64,000 nucleotides of DNA from a virus (lineage: Duplodnaviria; Heunggongvirae; Uroviricota; Caudoviricetes): the IMG/VR virus record IMGVR_UViG_3300047202_000060; one strand, 5' to 3'. The position numbers were made by a program, and so were the translations under genes. This document shows positions 16,591 through 64,000 of the stretch, one piece after another. Numbering within the stretch: the first letter of the stretch is position 1; every line of letters starts with the position of its first letter. Below the pieces are notes generated by a model that was given only the letters and a program-made list of their open reading frames with translations, searched no databases and was not told where the DNA came from.

Positions 16591-17043
16591 TTAATTTCCT
16601 GTTTTGTCATTTTTCCCCATCTCTAATATTTTTTTCGCCAACTCTATATCCTGTTCCTTTAATCTCCTAGATACTTCATCAATCACCTTTATAAACCTTT
16701 CTCTTGGTTCTCCGCGAAGAAGTTCGGCAACCATAGCAACACGAGTAGGATTTGCATAAAGAAACGCTCTAATTGCATCTCCCAAAGGATGACAACCAAA
16801 GCAAAGTTCGCTAGTATTCTCAATCGCCAATTGAGGATTTTCCTTTACTGTATCAGGTTGATAGGCATACCACCAATGATGAAGAGCGGTTACTCTTATT
16901 TCCCCGTTAGCAATTGATTTTCCACAGGCATCACACTTATGTTTTCGTGGGTCAAATGGCAAAGTAACTACTATTCCATGACCGTGAGCAGTTTCATATC
17001 GTACTTTGAAACCAATTTTATTAACTTTCTTTTTCTCCGCCAT
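16591..17043 (-). CDS. HNH-like Zn-binding hypothetical protein
   Basis: CDACG...ALHH...ELCFGCH; likely start is the ATG at 17043 (MAEKK), not the track start at 17226. Confidence 0.5.
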   Translation of the reverse strand: MAEKKKVNKIGFKVRYETAHGHGIVVTLPFDPRKHKCDACGKSIANGEIRVTALHHWWYAYQPDTVKENPQLAIENTSELCFGCHPLGDAIRAFLYANPTRVAMVAELLRGEPRERFIKVIDEVSRRLKEQDIELAKKILEMGKNDKTGN

Positions 17044-17293
17044 TTTTCCAACTTCTTTGTTTCCAGCTTCGCCACAATTCTTCTCCGTATTTGGCAATGA
17101 AGTTTCGGTCTTCTTGTGTGAGATTTCTGAGCCATTCTCGGCGTTTTCTGAGTCTTTCTTCTCCGCGTTCATCTCGTTCGTTTTGGGGTTCTGGATGTTC
17201 ATATCTTTCTTCCTCAAAAAATTCATCTTCCTCTTTATATCTTTTAGATTCTGGTTGTTGTTCAGGCTGTTCCAATGTCTTCTTCCGTTCCAT
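17021..17293 (-). CDS. Small charged hypothetical protein
   Basis: Fills the gap between neighbours with short overlaps. Confidence 0.4.
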   Translation of the reverse strand: MERKKTLEQPEQQPESKRYKEEDEFFEEERYEHPEPQNERDERGEERLRKRREWLRNLTQEDRNFIAKYGEELWRSWKQRSWKNGGEKES

Positions 17294-17699
17294 CTTCTAC
17301 ATCTTGATACATAGCATCATAACATTCCCTATGAAAGTAAAGATGCTTTTTACGATGATGTTTTGAAATTACATCTTGTGTCCATTTAACTAATGTAAAA
17401 GATACTTGACTTTTACAAACAGGACATTTAAGCAAAGATTTTTGTGTTGATTCTTGAAACTCCAAATCATCTGGATAAGTAATAGGAGCATCACAATTTG
17501 GACATTTTGCACTACCCATAACCACTATTTCTCTTCCAAAGCCTTTGTTACCAACTTCGAAGATACAATGAATAGCACAACATTTAAGTGAGCCATCTTT
17601 GAACATCCCTCTGCCACGAAGAATAGCTTCAATATGTGGAGTATAAATAAATTCCATATTCTTACTTCTCCAATTTTTCCAGAAGACGTTTACATTCAT
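17262..17699 (-). CDS. Hypothetical Zn-finger protein
   Basis: CPNC, CPVC and FHRECY motifs. Confidence 0.5.
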   Translation of the reverse strand: MNVNVFWKNWRSKNMEFIYTPHIEAILRGRGMFKDGSLKCCAIHCIFEVGNKGFGREIVVMGSAKCPNCDAPITYPDDLEFQESTQKSLLKCPVCKSQVSFTLVKWTQDVISKHHRKKHLYFHRECYDAMYQDVEDGTEEDIGTA

Positions 17700-17804
17700 C
17701 TTCCGAAATTACGTGGTAAAGATACAAGTCCTCAATGATGTCCTTTAGAACTTCTTGCATTATTTCAAGTTCAACCTTTATTTTTATCTCGTCCATATTT
17801 TCAC

Positions 17805-55101: not shown

Positions 55102-55556
55102 AGCGTTATTGTCATAGTTTTTGTTTCTTTTTCGTAGTCCGCTTCAACACTCATCGAACACTTTTCTATTATGCTCTTTTTCAATTCTTTTAAAAATAAG
55201 TCTGGTCGGTCAACTTTGATATTTTTACCCATTAATGAATACCACTTTTCATTGTCTAAAGACCACTCTAACCGAGAATGAGAAATAACTTCCATTGTAA
55301 TAGGAATACTTGTTGATTGTGCTGATTCTTTCTTGTTCAATCCGACTATTAAAACAGAAATACATTTCTTACATATTGCTTTCATATCTTCTGTAAGAAA
55401 ATCTGGTTTACTTCCACAATTTGAACATTTCTGTTCTCCGACCCACTCATCTGGCGGCAAGGGAAATAATTTCATCTTAAACTGTTTAATAGGTTTGAAC
55501 ATAACATTTGAAACAGTTCCTAAATCTGAGTCGGCTATTCTGAGTTCAATCCTCAT
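55098..55556 (-). CDS. Hypothetical protein with Zn finger
   Basis: CSNCG...CKKC. Confidence 0.45.
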   Translation of the reverse strand: MRIELRIADSDLGTVSNVMFKPIKQFKMKLFPLPPDEWVGEQKCSNCGSKPDFLTEDMKAICKKCISVLIVGLNKKESAQSTSIPITMEVISHSRLEWSLDNEKWYSLMGKNIKVDRPDLFLKELKKSIIEKCSMSVEADYEKETKTMTITL

Positions 55557-55867
55557 TAAACAAGCCTCAAATTCTTAGTAAATTGTTTTGTCTCTTCGGT
55601 TTGGCGGAATCCTAAACATGTCATTGTTCCCGCTGGAACTTCAGTTAAGCCAGCATCGAGAATATATCTTAAACAATGATGTGTATGGAATATCTTCATA
55701 AATGTTTCATGATCTGCTTTGAGAACTATAGCTCGTCCAACTATCTTATAGTCGTCTGCAAGCAACATTGCAACGTGACTAACCTGAGCGGCAATCTTGC
55801 CCTTACTCATACCTAGACTTTCATCAATGATATATACGAACGTTATAGATAGGTCAACTTTTCTCAT
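55556..55867 (-). CDS. pth2: Peptidyl-tRNA hydrolase, archaeal/eukaryotic Pth2 type
   Basis: LGMSKGKIAAQVSHVA, AIVLKA, ILDAGLTEVPAGTMTCLG. Confidence 0.9.
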   Translation of the reverse strand: MRKVDLSITFVYIIDESLGMSKGKIAAQVSHVAMLLADDYKIVGRAIVLKADHETFMKIFHTHHCLRYILDAGLTEVPAGTMTCLGFRQTEETKQFTKNLRLV

Positions 55868-59921: not shown

Positions 59922-60497
59922 TTGATTGAAACAGCAATTGCTCTAATTGTTGTTGCAGTTAGTGTTGTTGTCACTTTTAAGTATCGAAATCTTTTTAAAA
60001 AATATAAACATCTTTATGAGGAAGTAACTAAACCTAAACCAACTCCATCCTCAAAACATACTTCCCCGAAAGCACTACAAGCTCAAGAAGAACTTCAACG
60101 ATATTTAGAAATTAGAAGCAAAGTTCTTTTACGAGATCATTTCAGATGCCAAGAATGCAATTACTATCAACATCTTGAAGTTCATCATATTATTCCTAGA
60201 AGCAAAGGCGGGTCTGATGAGTTAACCAATTTGATTACATTATGCCAGAGATGCCATGCTAAAAAACACGGATTTAAAAAACGAGAAGACAAACGAAAAA
60301 GACATACAAAACGAAACAAACGAAAACACTTCAAAAAGTATATTCAAAAACACCATAAAACTTTTACCATAGAATATCCAGTACAATCAATGGAAGATGT
60401 TCATCCACATCAGGAAGATCATTCGCCAGAAGCCGATGCCAGACGACAAAAACTTTATGAAAAATGGAAACAAAACGAACTTAATCAACCGTCTTAA
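59922..60497 (+). CDS. HNH endonuclease-domain protein with an N-terminal membrane anchor
   Basis: N-terminal hydrophobic helix; RDHFRCQEC...LEVHHIIPRSKGGSDELTNLITLCQRCHAKKH. Confidence 0.8.
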   Translation: MIETAIALIVVAVSVVVTFKYRNLFKKYKHLYEEVTKPKPTPSSKHTSPKALQAQEELQRYLEIRSKVLLRDHFRCQECNYYQHLEVHHIIPRSKGGSDELTNLITLCQRCHAKKHGFKKREDKRKRHTKRNKRKHFKKYIQKHHKTFTIEYPVQSMEDVHPHQEDHSPEADARRQKLYEKWKQNELNQPS

Positions 60498-60603
60498 AGA
60501 AACTTATTTTACATTTTTTACAATATAATTCTTCTACATTTTCGAACTTATCTTTTAACTCCAATTCTGTTCCACAGAATCTACATTTATTTGATTTAAT
60601 CAA
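60481..60603 (-). CDS. Small Zn-ribbon protein (40 aa)
   Basis: TTG start; KCRFCG...YCKKC; the start overlaps operator copy 6. Confidence 0.4.
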   Translation of the reverse strand: MIKSNKCRFCGTELELKDKFENVEELYCKKCKISFFKTVD

Positions 60604-60611
60604 CTGATTAA
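60596..60611. promoter_or_regulatory. Palindromic operator copy 6
   Basis: ttaatcaactgattaa. Confidence 0.7.
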
Positions 60612-60692
60612 AATTCCTCTTTTTTCTTGTTCAGAGGGAAAGTTAAAAGAAGTATTTAAAACTTTTGCCTGAATTTATCAAAAACAGTTTAG

Positions 60693-60768
60693 AGCGAGTG
60701 GAAGGATTTGAACCTTCGATTAGCGGTGTTGCGGACCGCTCCGTTTAACCAGACTTCAGCACACTCGC
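60693..60768 (-). tRNA. tRNA-Cys(GCA), C33 variant
   Basis: Acceptor GCGAGTG/CACTCGC, U73; anticodon arm GCGGT-CCGCAAC-ACCGC. Confidence 0.9.
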
Positions 60769-60778
60769 ACAAAGTTAA

Positions 60779-60867
60779 TGGCGGTAGGTGAGAGATTCGA
60801 ACTCTCGGTTCCACATGGGAACGCTGGTTTAGCAAACCAGTACCTTAAACCACTCAGTCAACCTACC
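60779..60867 (-). tRNA. tRNA-Ser(GCT)
   Basis: CTGGT-TTGCTAA-ACCAG, long variable arm, G73, encoded CCA. Confidence 0.95.
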
Positions 60868-60873
60868 ATAAAG

Positions 60874-60962
60874 TGGCGACAGGGAGAGGATTTGAACCTC
60901 TATCTCACATAAGGAGACACCGTTTTCAGGACGGGTGCAATACCTGATTCTGCCACCCTGCC
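60874..60962 (-). tRNA. tRNA-Ser(TGA), C33 variant
   Basis: Loop CCTGAAA, long variable arm, G73, encoded CCA. Confidence 0.85.
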
Positions 60963-61105
60963 ACAAACGGACAAAAAATTTAGGCTGACGATTTGGAATA
61001 ACATCTGGACTGACTGATACCCAAGTCATGATAACTAGGAAGAGTTTTGAATATCATATCAATCACTTGTTCTAAGTATAGTATCAAACACCTATATAAA
61101 CCTTT

Positions 61106-61179
61106 TGGTTGCGGGAGACAGAGTTAAACTGTCGCTATTGGATTATGAGTCCAATTGACTGTCGTTATCTTATCCCGCA
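61106..61179 (-). tRNA. tRNA-Met/Ile2(CAT) with atypical D-arm and T-loop
   Basis: TTGGA-CTCATAA-TCCAA; acceptor TGCGGGA/TCCCGCA; encoded CCA; weak D-arm. Confidence 0.7.
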
Positions 61180-61551
61180 TCACTCGGACCAAATTATTTT
61201 CCAATTACTTTTTGCTTTACATAAGTCTTTTGCTTTATGAAGACTATTACAGACCATACATCGAACCTCAAGATCGTTAGTTTCTCTTCTTCCAGCCAGA
61301 ATATCCAGATAGAATTGTTTTTGGCATCGATTCTTTCTATTCATCTCTTGATTCCCGCCGCCGTTGATGTGGTTGATTTCTAATATTGAATATTCTATAC
61401 ATCCACAATTGACACATTTCCCGCCAAGCAAATCAATGACTTTCTTTCTGATTTTATCATAATATCTTTTATGGGAAACCCTATTTCTCTTAGCCCAATC
61501 TCTTTGAAATTTTCTTTGTTTATTCGCATCTTTGTAAGGCATATTTATCAT
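61180..61551 (-). CDS. HNH endonuclease (family A, copy 3) inserted in the tRNA array
   Basis: LLGGKCVNCG...LEINHINGGG...EVRCMVCNSLHK; its stop abuts tRNA-Met. Confidence 0.75.
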   Translation of the reverse strand: MINMPYKDANKQRKFQRDWAKRNRVSHKRYYDKIRKKVIDLLGGKCVNCGCIEYSILEINHINGGGNQEMNRKNRCQKQFYLDILAGRRETNDLEVRCMVCNSLHKAKDLCKAKSNWKIIWSE

Positions 61552-61563
61552 ATAACTATAATG

Positions 61564-61595
61564 GGTTCGACATATTTAAGTCTTTCTGTCGAACC
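61564..61595. repeat. 9-bp inverted repeat enclosing the TATA box of the HNH gene
   Basis: GGTTCGACA-(14 nt, tatttaagtctttc)-TGTCGAACC. Confidence 0.7.
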
Positions 61596-61603
61596 TTAGT
61601 TAA

Positions 61604-61757
61604 TACGGGCGGGGAGACTTGCACTCCCACAGCAACTAAGCAAGGGGTTTGCTCTTTCTGGGAATTGAATCTTAGCCATCCAGACATGGATTTGAGCCAT
61701 CCAGATTTAAGCCATCCAGACTTACGTTCTCTGGGTTTTCTGATTCCCTACGCCCGC
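61604..61757 (-). tRNA. tRNA-Leu gene with BHB introns at 29/30 and 36/37 and three alternative anticodon micro-exons (TAA 61707-61713, CAA 61692-61698, AAG 61671-61677)
   Basis: Acceptor GCGGGCG/CGCCCGT, A73, D-arm, Leu-type variable arm, T-arm; joining the exons gives the stem GAGGG/CCCTT around a CT-NNN-AC loop. Confidence 0.8.
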
Positions 61758-61877
61758 ATACCCTAACCACGACCCGTGTTGCTCGACACACTCATCGCGT
61801 GAAGAATCGTGGTATAACCTTATTATATGACAATACTACTATATAAACCTTTCTATAGAAGTAACATGCTAAAATAT

Positions 61878-61951
61878 TGGCGGATATGGTGGGAATTGAA
61901 CCCGCGCTATCACCGTGACAGGATGACGTGCTACCACTACACTACATATCC
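61878..61951 (-). tRNA. tRNA-Asp(GTC)
   Basis: TCATC-CTGTCAC-GGTGA, G73, CCA. Confidence 0.9.
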
Positions 61952-61956
61952 ATTAC

Positions 61957-62031
61957 TGGTCCTACTGGACTGAGTTGCACAGTCATCATTCGGTTTACAG
62001 CCGAAGGTCCTATCTGTTAGACGACAGCAGG
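61957..62031 (-). tRNA. tRNA-Tyr(GTA), archaeal type
   Basis: C1-G72, A73, short variable loop, TTCGG-CTGTAAA-CCGAA; G55. Confidence 0.9.
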
Positions 62032-62039
62032 GCAATTGA

Positions 62040-62114
62040 TGGTGGGGCATCACCGAGTCGCACGGTGTCCATGCGGGTCCAAACCGCAGATGCACCCTGT
62101 CACACCTATGCCCC
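62040..62114 (-). tRNA. tRNA-Pro(TGG)
   Basis: TGCGG-TTTGGAC-CCGCA; A37; G55; CCA. Confidence 0.9.
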
Positions 62115-62118
62115 ATAG

Positions 62119-62195
62119 TGGTGGTCCCGCCTAGAGTTGAACTAGGTCTCAGACTTTGTAAGAGTCTGGTGCTAATTCCGTTACACTACGAGACC
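62119..62195 (-). tRNA. tRNA-Val(TAC)
   Basis: AGACT-CTTACAA-AGTCT; CCA. Confidence 0.9.
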
Positions 62196-62197
62196 GA

Positions 62198-62272
62198 TGG
62201 TGGGGTAGTAGAGGATTCGAACCTCTGTTTCTGGTTTTGGAGACCAGAGCCTTCCTATTGACTGAACACCCC
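62198..62272 (-). tRNA. tRNA-Trp(CCA)
   Basis: CTGGT-CTCCAAA-ACCAG; one-nt acceptor bulge; CCA. Confidence 0.85.
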
Positions 62273-62273
62273 A

Positions 62274-62349
62274 TGGCGGAGATGTAAGGAGTCGAACCCT
62301 AACCTTTCAGCTTCGAAGGCTGATATGCTATCCATTACACCACATCTCC
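62274..62349 (-). tRNA. tRNA-Arg(TCG)
   Basis: TCAGC-CTTCGAA-GCTGA; CCA. Confidence 0.95.
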
Positions 62350-62352
62350 AAA

Positions 62353-62425
62353 CGCCGCCCGTAGGAATCGAACCTACACCTTCCGCCTTAACAGGGCGGT
62401 ACACTCACCATTATGCTAGAGCGGC
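62353..62425 (-). tRNA. tRNA-Asn(GTT)
   Basis: CCGCC-CTGTTAA-GGCGG; G73. Confidence 0.95.
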
Positions 62426-62428
62426 AAG

Positions 62429-62501
62429 TGCCGACTAGCGGAGTCGAACCGCTGTCATACCCGTGTTTCAGACGGGCGAACTCCCGTTGTTCTAAGTCGG
62501 C
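62429..62501 (-). tRNA. tRNA-Phe(GAA)
   Basis: CCCGT-CTGAAAC-ACGGG; A73. Confidence 0.9.
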
Positions 62502-62505
62502 ATAG

Positions 62506-62576
62506 TTGGTAAGGCGGGAGTTGGACCCGCTCTAATGGCTTCACAGACCATTGTGCTACTGTTACACTACATACCG
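62506..62576 (-). tRNA. tRNA-His(GTG) with imperfect acceptor stem
   Basis: ATGGT-CTGTGAA-GCCAT; two acceptor mismatches; C55. Confidence 0.7.
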
Positions 62577-62578
62577 AA

Positions 62579-62652
62579 AGGACCATACGGGATTTGAACC
62601 CGTGTTTGCGGATTAAAGGTCCGCCGCACTAACCTGACTATGCTAATGGTCC
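62579..62652 (-). tRNA. tRNA-Lys(TTT), C33 variant
   Basis: GCGGA-CCTTTAA-TCCGC. Confidence 0.9.
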
Positions 62653-62657
62653 ACGAG

Positions 62658-62730
62658 TGCACCTATTGGGATTTGAACCCAAATTCTCGGATTAAGGGTC
62701 CGATGTACTGCCTGATTATACGATAGGTGC
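62658..62730 (-). tRNA. tRNA-Lys(CTT), C33 variant
   Basis: TCGGA-CCCTTAA-TCCGA. Confidence 0.9.
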
Positions 62731-62737
62731 TCATAGA

Positions 62738-62810
62738 TGGGCGATGGTGGAGTTGAACCACCTTCAACAGACTTATAAGGCTCTGTATGCTACCGTTACA
62801 TTATTCGCCC
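62738..62810 (-). tRNA. tRNA-Ile(TAT) with a bulged G in the anticodon stem
   Basis: CAGA(G)C-CTTATAA-GTCTG; acceptor GGGCGAA/ATCGCCC, A73. Confidence 0.75.
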
Positions 62811-62815
62811 GCTAT

Positions 62816-62890
62816 TGGTGCGGATGTCGGGAATTGCACCCGAACCACAACCTTGGAAAGGTCATTATGCAACTATTACACTTCATCCGC
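62816..62890 (-). tRNA. tRNA-Gly(TCC)
   Basis: TGACC-TTTCCAA-GGTTG; G55; CCA. Confidence 0.9.
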
Positions 62891-62895
62891 ATTAC

Positions 62896-62970
62896 TGGTG
62901 CAAGAGGCGGGAATCGGACCCACGCCTTAGACTCGGCAAGTCCACATGCTACCACTAACACCACTCTTGC
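62896..62970 (-). tRNA. tRNA-Gly(GCC)
   Basis: TGGAC-TTGCCGA-GTCTA; C55; CCA. Confidence 0.9.
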
Positions 62971-62971
62971 A

Positions 62972-63048
62972 TGGTGGAGTAAGAGGGATTTGAACCCTCA
63001 CCTTCTGTTTGCAAAACAGATGTGCTACCAGATTGACACTAAAACCCC
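62972..63048 (-). tRNA. tRNA-Ala(TGC)
   Basis: TCTGT-TTTGCAA-ACAGA; G3:U70 identity pair; CCA. Confidence 0.9.
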
Positions 63049-63052
63049 ATAG

Positions 63053-63183
63053 TGGTCCCGTGGGGAGTTGAACCCCAACTCACAGGTTTCTCCGTCTGGT
63101 AAACTATTTTTATTAGTTTACCACCTGAGAGCCTTTGAGCGACTTGAAAGCCTGTGCTCCTTGTCCGTTTAGATTACGGGACC
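63053..63183 (-). tRNA. tRNA-Glu with BHB intron(s): TTC via one 57-nt intron (63088-63144), or CTC via 19-nt (63135-63153) plus 38-nt (63088-63125) introns
   Basis: Stem ACAGG/CCTGT; a second AGGCTCTCA element lies inside the intron; BHB helices CTTT or CTCT with GGAG, and GAGC/GCTC. Confidence 0.85.
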
Positions 63184-63186
63184 GAA

Positions 63187-63258
63187 AGCCGCTACCAGAA
63201 GTTGCATCTGGACCCAGAGTTTACAAAACTCTCATGCTACTGTTAACACTATAGCGGC
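63187..63258 (-). tRNA. tRNA-Thr(TGT)
   Basis: AGAGT-TTTGTAA-ACTCT; U73; G55. Confidence 0.9.
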
Positions 63259-63259
63259 A

Positions 63260-63335
63260 TGGCACAAGTGGAAGGATTCGAACCCTCATCTCTCACGTTA
63301 GAACCGTGATGCTCTATCCATTAAGCTACACCTGT
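63260..63335 (-). tRNA. tRNA-Arg(TCT)
   Basis: TCACG-GTTCTAA-CGTGA (G32); CCA. Confidence 0.9.
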
Positions 63336-63370
63336 ATTTGTGAAGTCAATTGAATGCAGTTGAAATCAAT

Positions 63371-63485
63371 TGGTAGTGGGTGGCAGATTCGAACTGCCCC
63401 TACAAGCTATCTCCATTGGACAATATCAGAGGCTTAGACCCCAATTTCAAAGGCTTGTCTCCTTATCCAAATAGATTAACCCACT
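63371..63485 (-). tRNA. tRNA-Gln with BHB intron(s): TTG via one 38-nt intron (63409-63446), or CTG via 21-nt (63434-63454) plus 17-nt (63409-63425) introns
   Basis: A1-U72, stem CAAGC/GCTTG; a second GCCTCTGA element lies inside the intron; strict BHB at 29/30 (AGAC/GTCT); CCA. Confidence 0.88.
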
Positions 63486-63528
63486 ATATCCATAATGCCA
63501 ATGCAATCGACCACGGCAAGACAAAGAA

Positions 63529-63660
63529 ATGATGGCAAGAAAATCGTGATAATCTTGACGGGTCTTACTGTTGTCTTCGCTTACCGTGATCTGCTGGTTT
63601 GGCGACTGTCGTATTAAAATACCAAAACTCGAAACGTTCTATACGACTTTTTGCCATCAT
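63529..63660 (-). ncRNA. Candidate structured RNA or leader upstream of the tRNA array
   Basis: About 18-bp terminal stem ATGATGGCAA-AAAGTCGT / ACGATTTT-C-TTGCCATCAT; TATA box at about 63705-63716. Confidence 0.4.
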
Positions 63661-63751
63661 AGCTAAGACCACGTTTATAGAGAGTGTAATATAATACAAA
63701 ACAAGTATATAAATGTTTCGGTAGAAAGACCATACTCAATAGTGTCATAAA

Positions 63752-63835
63752 GCTGGAAGGAGTATCTGACCGCCGCCTTATTACTCCAATGACGGATAAG
63801 GCTTATTTTACCAGCCGATGACTGTGAGATGTCAT
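63752..63835. ncRNA. Candidate pseudoknotted RNA element
   Basis: Crossing helices GGAGTA/TACTCC and GCCTTAT/ATAAGGC inside GCTGG/CCAGC, followed by the hairpin ATGAC/GTCAT. Confidence 0.45.
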
Positions 63836-63844
63836 AGGTTGGAC

Positions 63845-64000
63845 AGGATTCACCGTTCAGCGCGGTTCTTACGTTTACGGGGAGCATTCCAAATCAGCAC
63901 GGTCTAGGTCTGCAACCCCGCCGTACCTACATTTTCTTCCCCGTTACTGCCTAATACCAGAGGGTTTGTGGTTATCCAACCCGTGACTGTGAAAAGGGTG
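63845..64000 (-). ncRNA. 3' part of a structured RNA, possibly RNase P RNA-like; truncated by the window edge
   Basis: GC-richer and non-coding; GC..GAATGCTCCCC followed by AGAACCGCGCTGA resembles the archaeal RNase P P2 3' strand and CR-V. Confidence 0.3.

Follow-up and report, generated by a model that had tools for sequence, protein, structure and literature searches.

To our knowledge, the introns of tRNA precursors have been thought to be removed in one fixed way, and cases in which one tRNA part serves several isoacceptors are known only from the trans-spliced split tRNAs of a few hyperthermophilic archaea. The split tRNA-Glu(UUC) and tRNA-Glu(CUC) of Nanoarchaeum equitans share one 3' half (Randau et al. 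2005, as reviewed in PMC4390854 and PMC4090602): a constitutive part is combined with alternative parts that carry synonymous anticodons, each part has a gene and a promoter of its own, the archaeal splicing endonuclease (EndA) and ligase join them in trans at bulge-helix-bulge (BHB) motifs, and whole 5' halves alternate. In the tri-split tRNA-Gly of Caldivirga maquilingensis (Fujishima et al. 2009, as reviewed in the same two articles), a common 5' quarter, alternative pieces covering nt 26-37 and a common 3' half come from up to five independent transcripts which are combined in trans, as has been shown experimentally. In the multiple-intron tRNA genes of the Thermoproteota type (2007/2008 work, as reviewed in PMC4090602), each intron is simply removed and one product results.

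The gene described in the present work lies in a 64,000-nt stretch of viral DNA, all of which was analysed and which is called the window below, and it resembles each of these systems in part. It encodes the same isoacceptor pair as the N. equitans genes, again with a constitutive part and an alternative part bearing synonymous anticodons, but it is viral, it does so in one gene and one transcript of 131 nt, the part that alternates is a 9-nt cassette rather than a whole 5' half, both exons are shared, and the proposed choice between cassettes would be made by folding in cis. With the C. maquilingensis tRNA-Gly it has in common the same logic and nearly the same break points, one at a non-canonical site in or near the anticodon stem and one at 37/38 (here 28/29 and 37/38), whereas its cassettes stand in tandem in one gene, would exclude each other in cis and are known from sequence alone. 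One of its two predicted splice routes, like a multiple-intron gene, combines a relaxed HBh' intron in the anticodon stem with a canonical intron and would need a broad-specificity EndA, of alpha2beta2 or epsilon2 architecture, but here the first "intron" holds a complete alternative anticodon cassette and overlaps a single-intron route that would lead to a second tRNA. The gene has features of intron-containing and of multiple-intron archaeal tRNA genes, and not the separate-gene feature which defines split tRNAs.

No published description of one tRNA gene that gives different anticodons by alternative BHB splicing was found in full-text searches of the literature, and such a gene is described neither in the Bathyarchaeia virus paper nor in a recent preprint on Asgard tRNA introns.

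The virus, its probable host and the surroundings of the tRNA array

The window has a G+C content of about 35% and encodes an MCM helicase, a LonB-like protease, a family-B DNA polymerase (PolB), a RadA/Rad51-like protein, a terminase-like protein and a tail-collar protein, a gene set which is, judged by its composition, that of a large archaeal tailed virus. Comparison with known phages gave no near DNA match and, for PolB, distant matches only. Relatives of the viral PolB are numerous in metagenomes, and among the matches listed almost all of the nearest cellular homologues (43-47% identity) come from Bathyarchaeia; the similarity of this one protein makes Bathyarchaeia the probable host class. 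A BLAST comparison of the tRNA array with 401 Bathyarchaeia genomes gave only short matches at the level of tRNAs, one of them to a host tRNA-Met, and no provirus.

Among the 37 window ORFs of at least 150 aa there is no virus-encoded EndA or RtcB. Each of five Bathyarchaeia genomes contains two EndA paralogues of about 190-210 aa which score above the Pfam cut-off; one is closest to the catalytic subunits of the Sulfolobus, Aeropyrum and Pyrobaculum enzymes, and the other most resembles M. jannaschii EndA and also matches structural subunits weakly. Given these presumed subunit roles and the presumed host, the two-paralogue layout looks like that of an alpha2beta2 enzyme, a form of EndA for which cleavage of relaxed hBH/HBh' motifs and of non-canonical introns has been reported (PMC4090602).

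The tRNA array is dense and occupies 60692..63485 on the minus strand. A peptidyl-tRNA hydrolase PTH2 gene lies near it (55556-55867, minus strand; Pfam E = 2.8e-12), and within it, between tRNA-Leu and tRNA-Met, is a 123-aa Cys-rich ORF (61180-61551, minus strand) for which only a weak zinc-finger match was obtained. In the related contig L001, eRF1-like ORF fragments are found between tRNA-Asp and tRNA-Leu (L001:14555-15124, minus strand). Upstream of the array, non-coding stretches in the window (63490-63700 and 63760-64000, minus strand) and in L001 (L001:16850-17050 and 17540-17700, minus strand) are conserved between the viruses with hairpin-like variation. TATA-like promoter elements stand upstream of them, and Rfam gave no match for these stretches, which may be structured RNAs of a new type.

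Organization of the tRNA-Glu precursor gene

The tRNA-Glu gene sits within a tightly packed part of the array among intact tRNA genes, and it is missed by searches that do not allow for introns: 63053..63183 is a gap in the array for plain ARAGORN and for Rfam, and ARAGORN with intron search places there a tRNA-Glu(ttc) at 63183..63052 on the minus strand with a 57-nt intron after nt 37. Precursor positions are numbered from 1, at window position 63183, to 131, at window position 63053. The parts of the gene are listed below with reference to two predicted splice routes, of which route A would give tRNA-Glu(UUC) and route B tRNA-Glu(CUC).

63053..63183, minus strand: whole tRNA-Glu precursor gene, 131 nt, no encoded CCA (ARAGORN -i)
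63154..63183, minus strand: 5' exon common to both routes, precursor 1-30 (5' strand of the acceptor stem, D arm, nt 26-28)
63156-63159, minus strand: GAGC, 5' strand of the first-intron central helix, within the shared 5' exon
63145..63153, minus strand: cassette 1, AGGCTTTCA, precursor 31-39, nt 29-37, anticodon UUC; exon in route A, inside the 19-nt intron in route B
63135..63144, minus strand: 10-nt spacer, AGTCGCTCAA, supplying for the 28/29 intron (A)GTC of the inner helix, GCTC as 3' strand of the central helix, and AA as the start of the 3' bulge
63126..63134, minus strand: cassette 2, AGGCTCTCA, precursor 50-58, nt 29-37, anticodon CUC; intron in route A, exon in route B
63088..63125, minus strand: distal 38-nt intron, common to routes A and B
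63097-63123, minus strand: 10-bp hairpin within the distal 38-nt intron
63090-63093, minus strand: GGAG, 3' strand of the central helix shared by both routes, within the distal intron
63053..63087, minus strand: shared 3' exon, nt 38-73 (A38, CCTGT as 3' strand of the anticodon stem, variable loop, T arm, acceptor 3' strand, discriminator A)

The two cassettes are 9-mers consisting of anticodon-stem nt 29-31 and loop nt 32-37, and the only difference between them is at nt 34, which makes the anticodon of cassette 2 CUC. Placed between common 5' and 3' exons, the UUC and CUC cassettes form the combination of constitutive pieces with alternative, synonymous-anticodon pieces that is found in split tRNAs, and, since all of the pieces are contiguous within 131 nt, they are not distributed over separate genes with promoters of their own. 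As read from the sequence, the D stem contains an A10.G25 mismatch.

Several other identities for the insert were considered and discarded. A group I intron would have roughly 200 nt or more against the 57 nt present here, and no Rfam intron family was found in 60000-64000 even at E <= 10; no TGATGA box of a box C/D guide RNA was seen in the intron sequence; the intron hairpin occurs in one copy in the window, as a dispersed repeat would not; and the only ORFs that overlap the insert, of 30-39 aa, do not suggest a coding function.

Two predicted splice routes and their products

All possible splice sites in the precursor were enumerated with a coded BHB rule, which specifies a 4-bp central helix and two 3-nt bulges on opposite strands, with the cut after the second bulge nucleotide. 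The motifs and predicted exon junctions of the two routes are as follows.

Route A, single intron: cuts between precursor positions 39 and 40 and between 96 and 97; 57 nt at 37/38; central helix CTTT/GGAG; outer helix 6 bp; inner helix 3 bp (GTC/GAC); bulges CAA and AAA
Route B, first intron: cuts between 30 and 31 and between 49 and 50; 19 nt at 28/29; central helix GAGC/GCTC, all Watson-Crick; no outer helix; inner helix 4 bp, GGC(T)/(A)GTC
Route B, distal intron: cuts between 58 and 59 and between 96 and 97; 38 nt at 37/38; central helix CTCT/GGAG; outer helix 3 bp; inner helix 2 bp
Predicted exon junction of route A: …GGCTTTCA joined to ACCTGTG…
Predicted exon junctions of route B: …GGAGCAC joined to AGGCTCTCA, joined in turn to ACCTGTG…

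The motif of route A is a complete canonical hBHBh', and the gene has the properties of one with a canonical BHB intron, namely an insert at 37/38 and a cloverleaf after its removal. The first intron of route B has a relaxed HBh', a second motif that lies at a non-canonical site, and the stem is restored once this intron is removed; since nt 23-26 take part in the central helix of the motif, the motif can form only if the D stem opens. In the distal intron of route B the outer helix continues, in the folded ensemble, for 5 more pairs past one A.G mismatch, and the central helix CTCT/GGAG contains one G-U pair as against two in CTTT/GGAG. Both routes lead to predicted RNAs of 74 nt, identical except at nt 34, which ARAGORN calls as Glu(ttc) and Glu(ctc) and in which the stems of the acceptor, anticodon and T arms are preserved, as are G18G19, the T-loop TTC and an anticodon loop of 7 nt.

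A preliminary description of the locus, made from the sequence without database searches, had set out both routes. For route A, motif enumeration and ARAGORN agree with it on the 57-nt intron at 37/38, on CTTT/GGAG with GTC/GAC as the inner helix, and on Glu(UUC) as the product; for route B, all of the motifs it had named are present, that is, the 19-nt intron at 28/29 (GAGC/GCTC, inner GGC/GTC, no outer helix) and the 38-nt intron at 37/38 (CTCT/GGAG, with the 10-bp hairpin), together with the product Glu(CUC), and its arithmetic of intron lengths (19 + 38 = 57) is correct. Its broader claim, that one gene encodes both the UUC and the CUC anticodon, is borne out in the layout, in the BHB geometry, in the non-randomness described below and in the synonymous cloverleaf products, which together suggest that both tRNAs are made in vivo. 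The broad-specificity EndA of the TACK type which it called for on route B would be in keeping with the two EndA paralogues carried by the genomes of the probable host class.

The proposed mechanism would operate on a precursor in which the shared 5' exon is followed by the UUC cassette, the 10-nt spacer, the CUC cassette, the hairpin intron and the shared 3' exon, and it would depend on two mutually exclusive folds, both cassettes being complementary to one 3' splice strand (GGAG, the AAA bulge and CCTGT). Pairing of cassette 1 with this shared strand would form the canonical hBHBh', from which EndA would remove 57 nt at 37/38, and ligation would then yield tRNA-Glu(UUC). Pairing of cassette 2 with the same strand would lead EndA to remove only the distal 38 nt at that site, while the relaxed HBh' (GAGC/GCTC and the 4-bp inner helix) would loop out cassette 1 and the spacer as the 19-nt intron at 28/29, and ligation would yield tRNA-Glu(CUC) with the same body as the UUC product. 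We infer that EndA and ligase of the host would perform both routes in vivo, and any ratio between the routes is likewise inferred.

Chance controls and folding competition

Under a simple motif definition some 30 relaxed BHB-like sites can be counted in the 131-nt precursor. Geometry by itself is accordingly weak evidence, and it was for this reason that two chance controls were run. When the cassettes were held fixed and the 10-nt spacer was replaced by random sequence (200,000 trials), any relaxed BHB in the six product-correct registers arose in 0.5% of trials and a first-intron motif as good as the observed one in 0.03%. All 10 bases of the actual spacer have a role in that motif: one is in the loop, three are in the inner helix, four are in the central helix and two are in the bulge. 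When the interior of the intron was shuffled in such a way that route A was kept (n = 3000), an alternative product differing only in the loop was obtained in 15 shuffles, mostly through register slips; a well-formed loop with a non-synonymous anticodon was obtained in 2 of the 3000, and CTC, the synonymous second anticodon, in none. The dual-cassette layout is not due to chance.

Constrained RNAfold ensemble energies, which are nearest-neighbour estimates that ignore tertiary structure and proteins and from which the UUC:CUC ratio is not readable, are -45.1 kcal/mol for route A, -53.1 kcal/mol for cassette 2 in the shared BHB and -51.6 kcal/mol with the first-intron motif formed. Cassette 2 is thus predicted to be ahead of cassette 1 in the competition for the shared strand by about 8 kcal/mol, and in the unconstrained minimum-energy fold it is cassette 2 that is paired with that strand. 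Without the cut at 28/29, pairing of cassette 2 would lead to a dead-end 93-nt RNA; a useless cassette 2 would sabotage the production of the UUC product, and would therefore be expected to be selected against. The folding energies, in favouring the CUC cassette in the shared helix, suggest that it is not a passive relic. They would also predict mostly CUC, yet GAA accounts for 80% of the Glu codons, which counts against the explanation preferred below.

Related viruses and the origin of the gene

A contig from another JGI sample (L182) is 100% identical to the window over 10 kb including the Glu gene; this identity indicates that the gene is not an assembly artefact, and it adds no variation. 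In two further contigs, L001 and L089, whose PolB proteins are 87% and 85% identical to that of the window, the same array is found in the same place, and between tRNA-Thr and tRNA-Ala there are two intact intronless genes, Glu(ttc) and then Glu(ctc). The corresponding slot in the window contains the cassette gene only, with the cassettes in the order of the relatives' genes, and ARAGORN and Rfam detected no other Glu gene in the 64-kb window or in the next 5.4 kb (taken from L182). Two genes and one two-cassette gene evidently replace each other at one locus.

As to conservation in related viruses, a check which the preliminary description had proposed, the Glu cassette gene is lineage-specific, and two separate genes for Glu(UUC) and Glu(CUC) stand at the same locus in L001 and L089. 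The cassette gene is known in one lineage only, represented by two identical contigs. An origin independent of the cassette tRNA-Gln gene of the same array, as had also been suggested, fits this distribution, the Gln cassette gene being common to the relatives and the Glu one being found only in this lineage.

In the acceptor stem, both window exons resemble the UUC gene of the relatives, and the T arm of the window gene is identical to that of an intron-bearing Glu gene in the distant relative L022. Of the 14 positions compared in cassette 2 and its flanks, 13 agree with the relatives' CUC anticodon arm (CAAAGG.TCTCAG). A simple deletion between tandem Glu genes is ruled out as the origin by the order of the parts: the two exons are UUC-type alike, and the CUC cassette precedes the 3' exon. 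The arrangement could have come about by a local duplication, or if a CUC arm and an intron had been inserted together into a UUC-type gene. Among close relatives, the stems of the Glu genes vary widely. An apparent second Glu cassette in L022, with a CCTTCGA loop that abuts the 3' stem, was rejected: it is explained by a TCGA/TCGA splice helix and an 8-bp inner helix, and the estimated probability of its arising by chance is about 1 in 16.

Further relatives were sought in several ways. Viral contigs in IMG/VR gave no match for the PolB peptides, the Glu 3' exon, the Gln gene pattern or the Leu cassette pattern. Scans of metagenomes and genomes with a PolB profile returned mostly cellular Bathyarchaeia PolB, and only L022 added a tRNA array among the matches listed; the PolB relatives L004-L008, L016, L090, L091 and L184 have no tRNA array beside PolB, and a search with neighbouring proteins beyond the array yielded no further relatives.

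Cassette genes for tRNA-Gln and tRNA-Leu, and codon use

Two other genes in the same arrays carry tandem anticodon cassettes.

Window 63371-63485, minus strand; L001:16727-16846, minus strand; L022:2714-2848, plus strand; and a partial copy at the end of L089: tRNA-Gln gene with UUG and CUG cassettes
Window 61604-61757, minus strand; L001:14355-14507, minus strand; L089:14545-14697, minus strand: tRNA-Leu gene with three tandem cassettes, UAA, CAA and AAG

ARAGORN with intron search reports the Gln gene of the window as a tRNA-Gln(ttg) at 63485..63371 with a 38-nt intron. In the window and in L001 this gene has complete BHBs on both routes, and both introns of the CUG route are complete hBHBh' motifs. 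Between the two viruses the first-intron helix shows a compensatory change, from AGAC/GTCT in the window to AATC/GGTT in L001, and nt 33, which is T in both window cassettes, is C in both L001 cassettes, with a change of the shared intron strand from GGAG to AGGG to match. In L022, the PolB of which is 48% identical, both Gln cassettes are present and the two motifs of the UUG route are in place, but judged by eye only a helix with 3 of 4 pairs is available to the first intron on the CUG route. The Leu cassettes are identical in the window, L001 and L089, and the spacers between them differ; simple two-intron enumeration recovered no clean splice routes for the three-cassette gene.

These genes resemble the Glu gene in that the 5' piece of the anticodon arm is repeated in tandem, the copies carry synonymous anticodons and share one 3' splice strand, and there is a mini-intron at 28/29-29/30. 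They differ from it in that they are conserved among the relatives, in the case of Gln with covariation, whereas the Glu gene is lineage-specific, has a first intron that lacks an outer helix, and has two genes in its place in the relatives. The Gln and Leu genes lend the proposed mechanism its credibility as family-level evidence, which does not extend to the Glu gene as such.

The anticodons of the Leu cassettes match the three Leu codons that the virus uses most, CTT (31%), TTA (27%) and TTG (19%). GAG makes up 20% of Glu codons, CAG 24% of Gln codons and AAG 28% of Lys codons, so that AAG, for which the array has a separate Lys(CUU) gene, is used about as much as GAG and CAG. The anticodons of the cassettes fit the codon use of the virus.

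Some further tRNA genes of the relatives have unusual structures. L022 contains a possible two-cassette tRNA-Lys (L022:3111-3213, plus strand; UUU and CUU loops sharing GGGG-AAA-TCCAC), for which enumeration recovered the Lys(UUU) route only, and a possible multi-cassette tRNA-Ser gene (L022:3218-3354, plus strand). In L089, tRNA-Arg(UCU) (L089:17246-17726, minus strand) and tRNA-Thr(UGU) (about 16668-17243, minus strand) have insertions at 37/38 of about 407 and 500 nt, each containing a small Cys/His-rich ORF with no Pfam match; these insertions may be mobile introns or endonuclease cassettes inside tRNA genes. U at position 33 of the anticodon loop is almost universal; in the relatives, C is found there in the Thr genes of L001 and L089 (loop TCTGTAA; L001:16541-16612, minus strand) as well as in both L001 Gln cassettes.

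Alternative explanations

The reading which we consider probable on the evidence above is that both tRNA-Glu(UUC) and tRNA-Glu(CUC) are made from the one gene by alternative splicing. The strongest competitor is an ordinary gene from which the 57-nt intron alone is removed and which gives tRNA-Glu(UUC) only, the CUC cassette being a by-product of recombination that has yet to decay; the intron might, for example, have been copied from an intron-bearing Glu(CUC) gene along with a piece of its 5' exon. The 13/14 match of cassette 2 and its flanks to the relatives' Glu(CUC) anticodon arm is what a copied fragment would show, route A has the best and most complete hBHBh' (outer helix 6 bp, inner helix 3 bp), the arrangement is confined to one lineage, and intron traffic in these arrays is intense, as the 400-500-nt insertions with small ORFs in tRNA-Arg and tRNA-Thr of L089 illustrate. 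A tRNA with U34 might, in addition, read GAG by wobble. A decaying by-product would, however, have to carry by accident a precise spacer motif that 99.97% of random spacers do not match, and would be predicted to be the stronger of the two cassettes by about 8 kcal/mol, with a dead-end 93-nt RNA as the result unless the 28/29 cut is made. The separate CUC gene of the relatives is, moreover, absent here from the window and the adjoining 5.4 kb, and the use of such cassettes is suggested by the conservation of the Gln and Leu cassette genes in this array. We regard production of the UUC product alone as unlikely, though deserving of serious consideration.

A gene with two introns, of 19 nt at 28/29 and of 38 nt at 37/38, that makes tRNA-Glu(CUC) only, with the UUC copy as nothing but a part of the first intron, appears more doubtful still. 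The conformers which it needs are the most stable (-53.1 and -51.6 kcal/mol, as against -45.1 kcal/mol for route A), its central helix CTCT/GGAG has one G-U pair where CTTT/GGAG has two, and tandem arrangements of a non-canonical and a canonical intron are common in Thermoproteota (PMC4090602). Cassette 1, however, forms a perfect anticodon arm contiguous with the 5' exon and has the longest outer helix, an exact match to the 3' strand of the anticodon stem, whereas the AAAGG upstream of cassette 2 has an A.G mismatch there; and with GAA as 80% of Glu codons and a UUC gene retained in the relatives, a virus that supplied CUC alone would be odd.

A non-functional or decaying gene, or an RNA with a role other than decoding (such as a decoy or sponge for the splicing enzyme), that yields no useful amount of either tRNA is the least probable of these readings: tRNA genes in viruses can be dispensed with and have a rapid turnover, the stems of the Glu genes are very different among close relatives and the D stem has its A10.G25 mismatch, but both predicted products keep their stems and loop features and pass ARAGORN, the splice motifs are intact, and the gene lies in a tight array of intact tRNA genes.

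Implications

Dual production from the Glu gene, the reading preferred here, would have a wider counterpart in the proposition, on which the evidence seems to us evenly balanced, that alternative tRNA splicing operates in this group of archaeal viruses. Competing BHB folds would allow one gene to give two isoacceptors (for Glu and Gln) or three (for Leu), RNA folding would set the ratio between them and might also regulate it, and the Glu gene would be an instance of the system caught in the course of evolving, in which a two-gene locus has been replaced by one cassette gene.

The Glu gene is useful as a test object, with a short precursor of 131 nt, two fully specified routes and close relatives that have the two-gene state. 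Standard tRNA finders assign one anticodon to each gene or miss such genes, and the decoding capacity of archaea and their viruses may in consequence be under-counted. If the proposal is true, this would be the first alternative splicing of a tRNA, and the folding of a pre-tRNA could decide which codon is read. It would account for the ability of compact viral genomes to serve more codons from fewer genes; the cassette genes would stand beside split and tri-split tRNAs as their counterpart in cis, and would give small genomes a new means of enlarging their decoding set.
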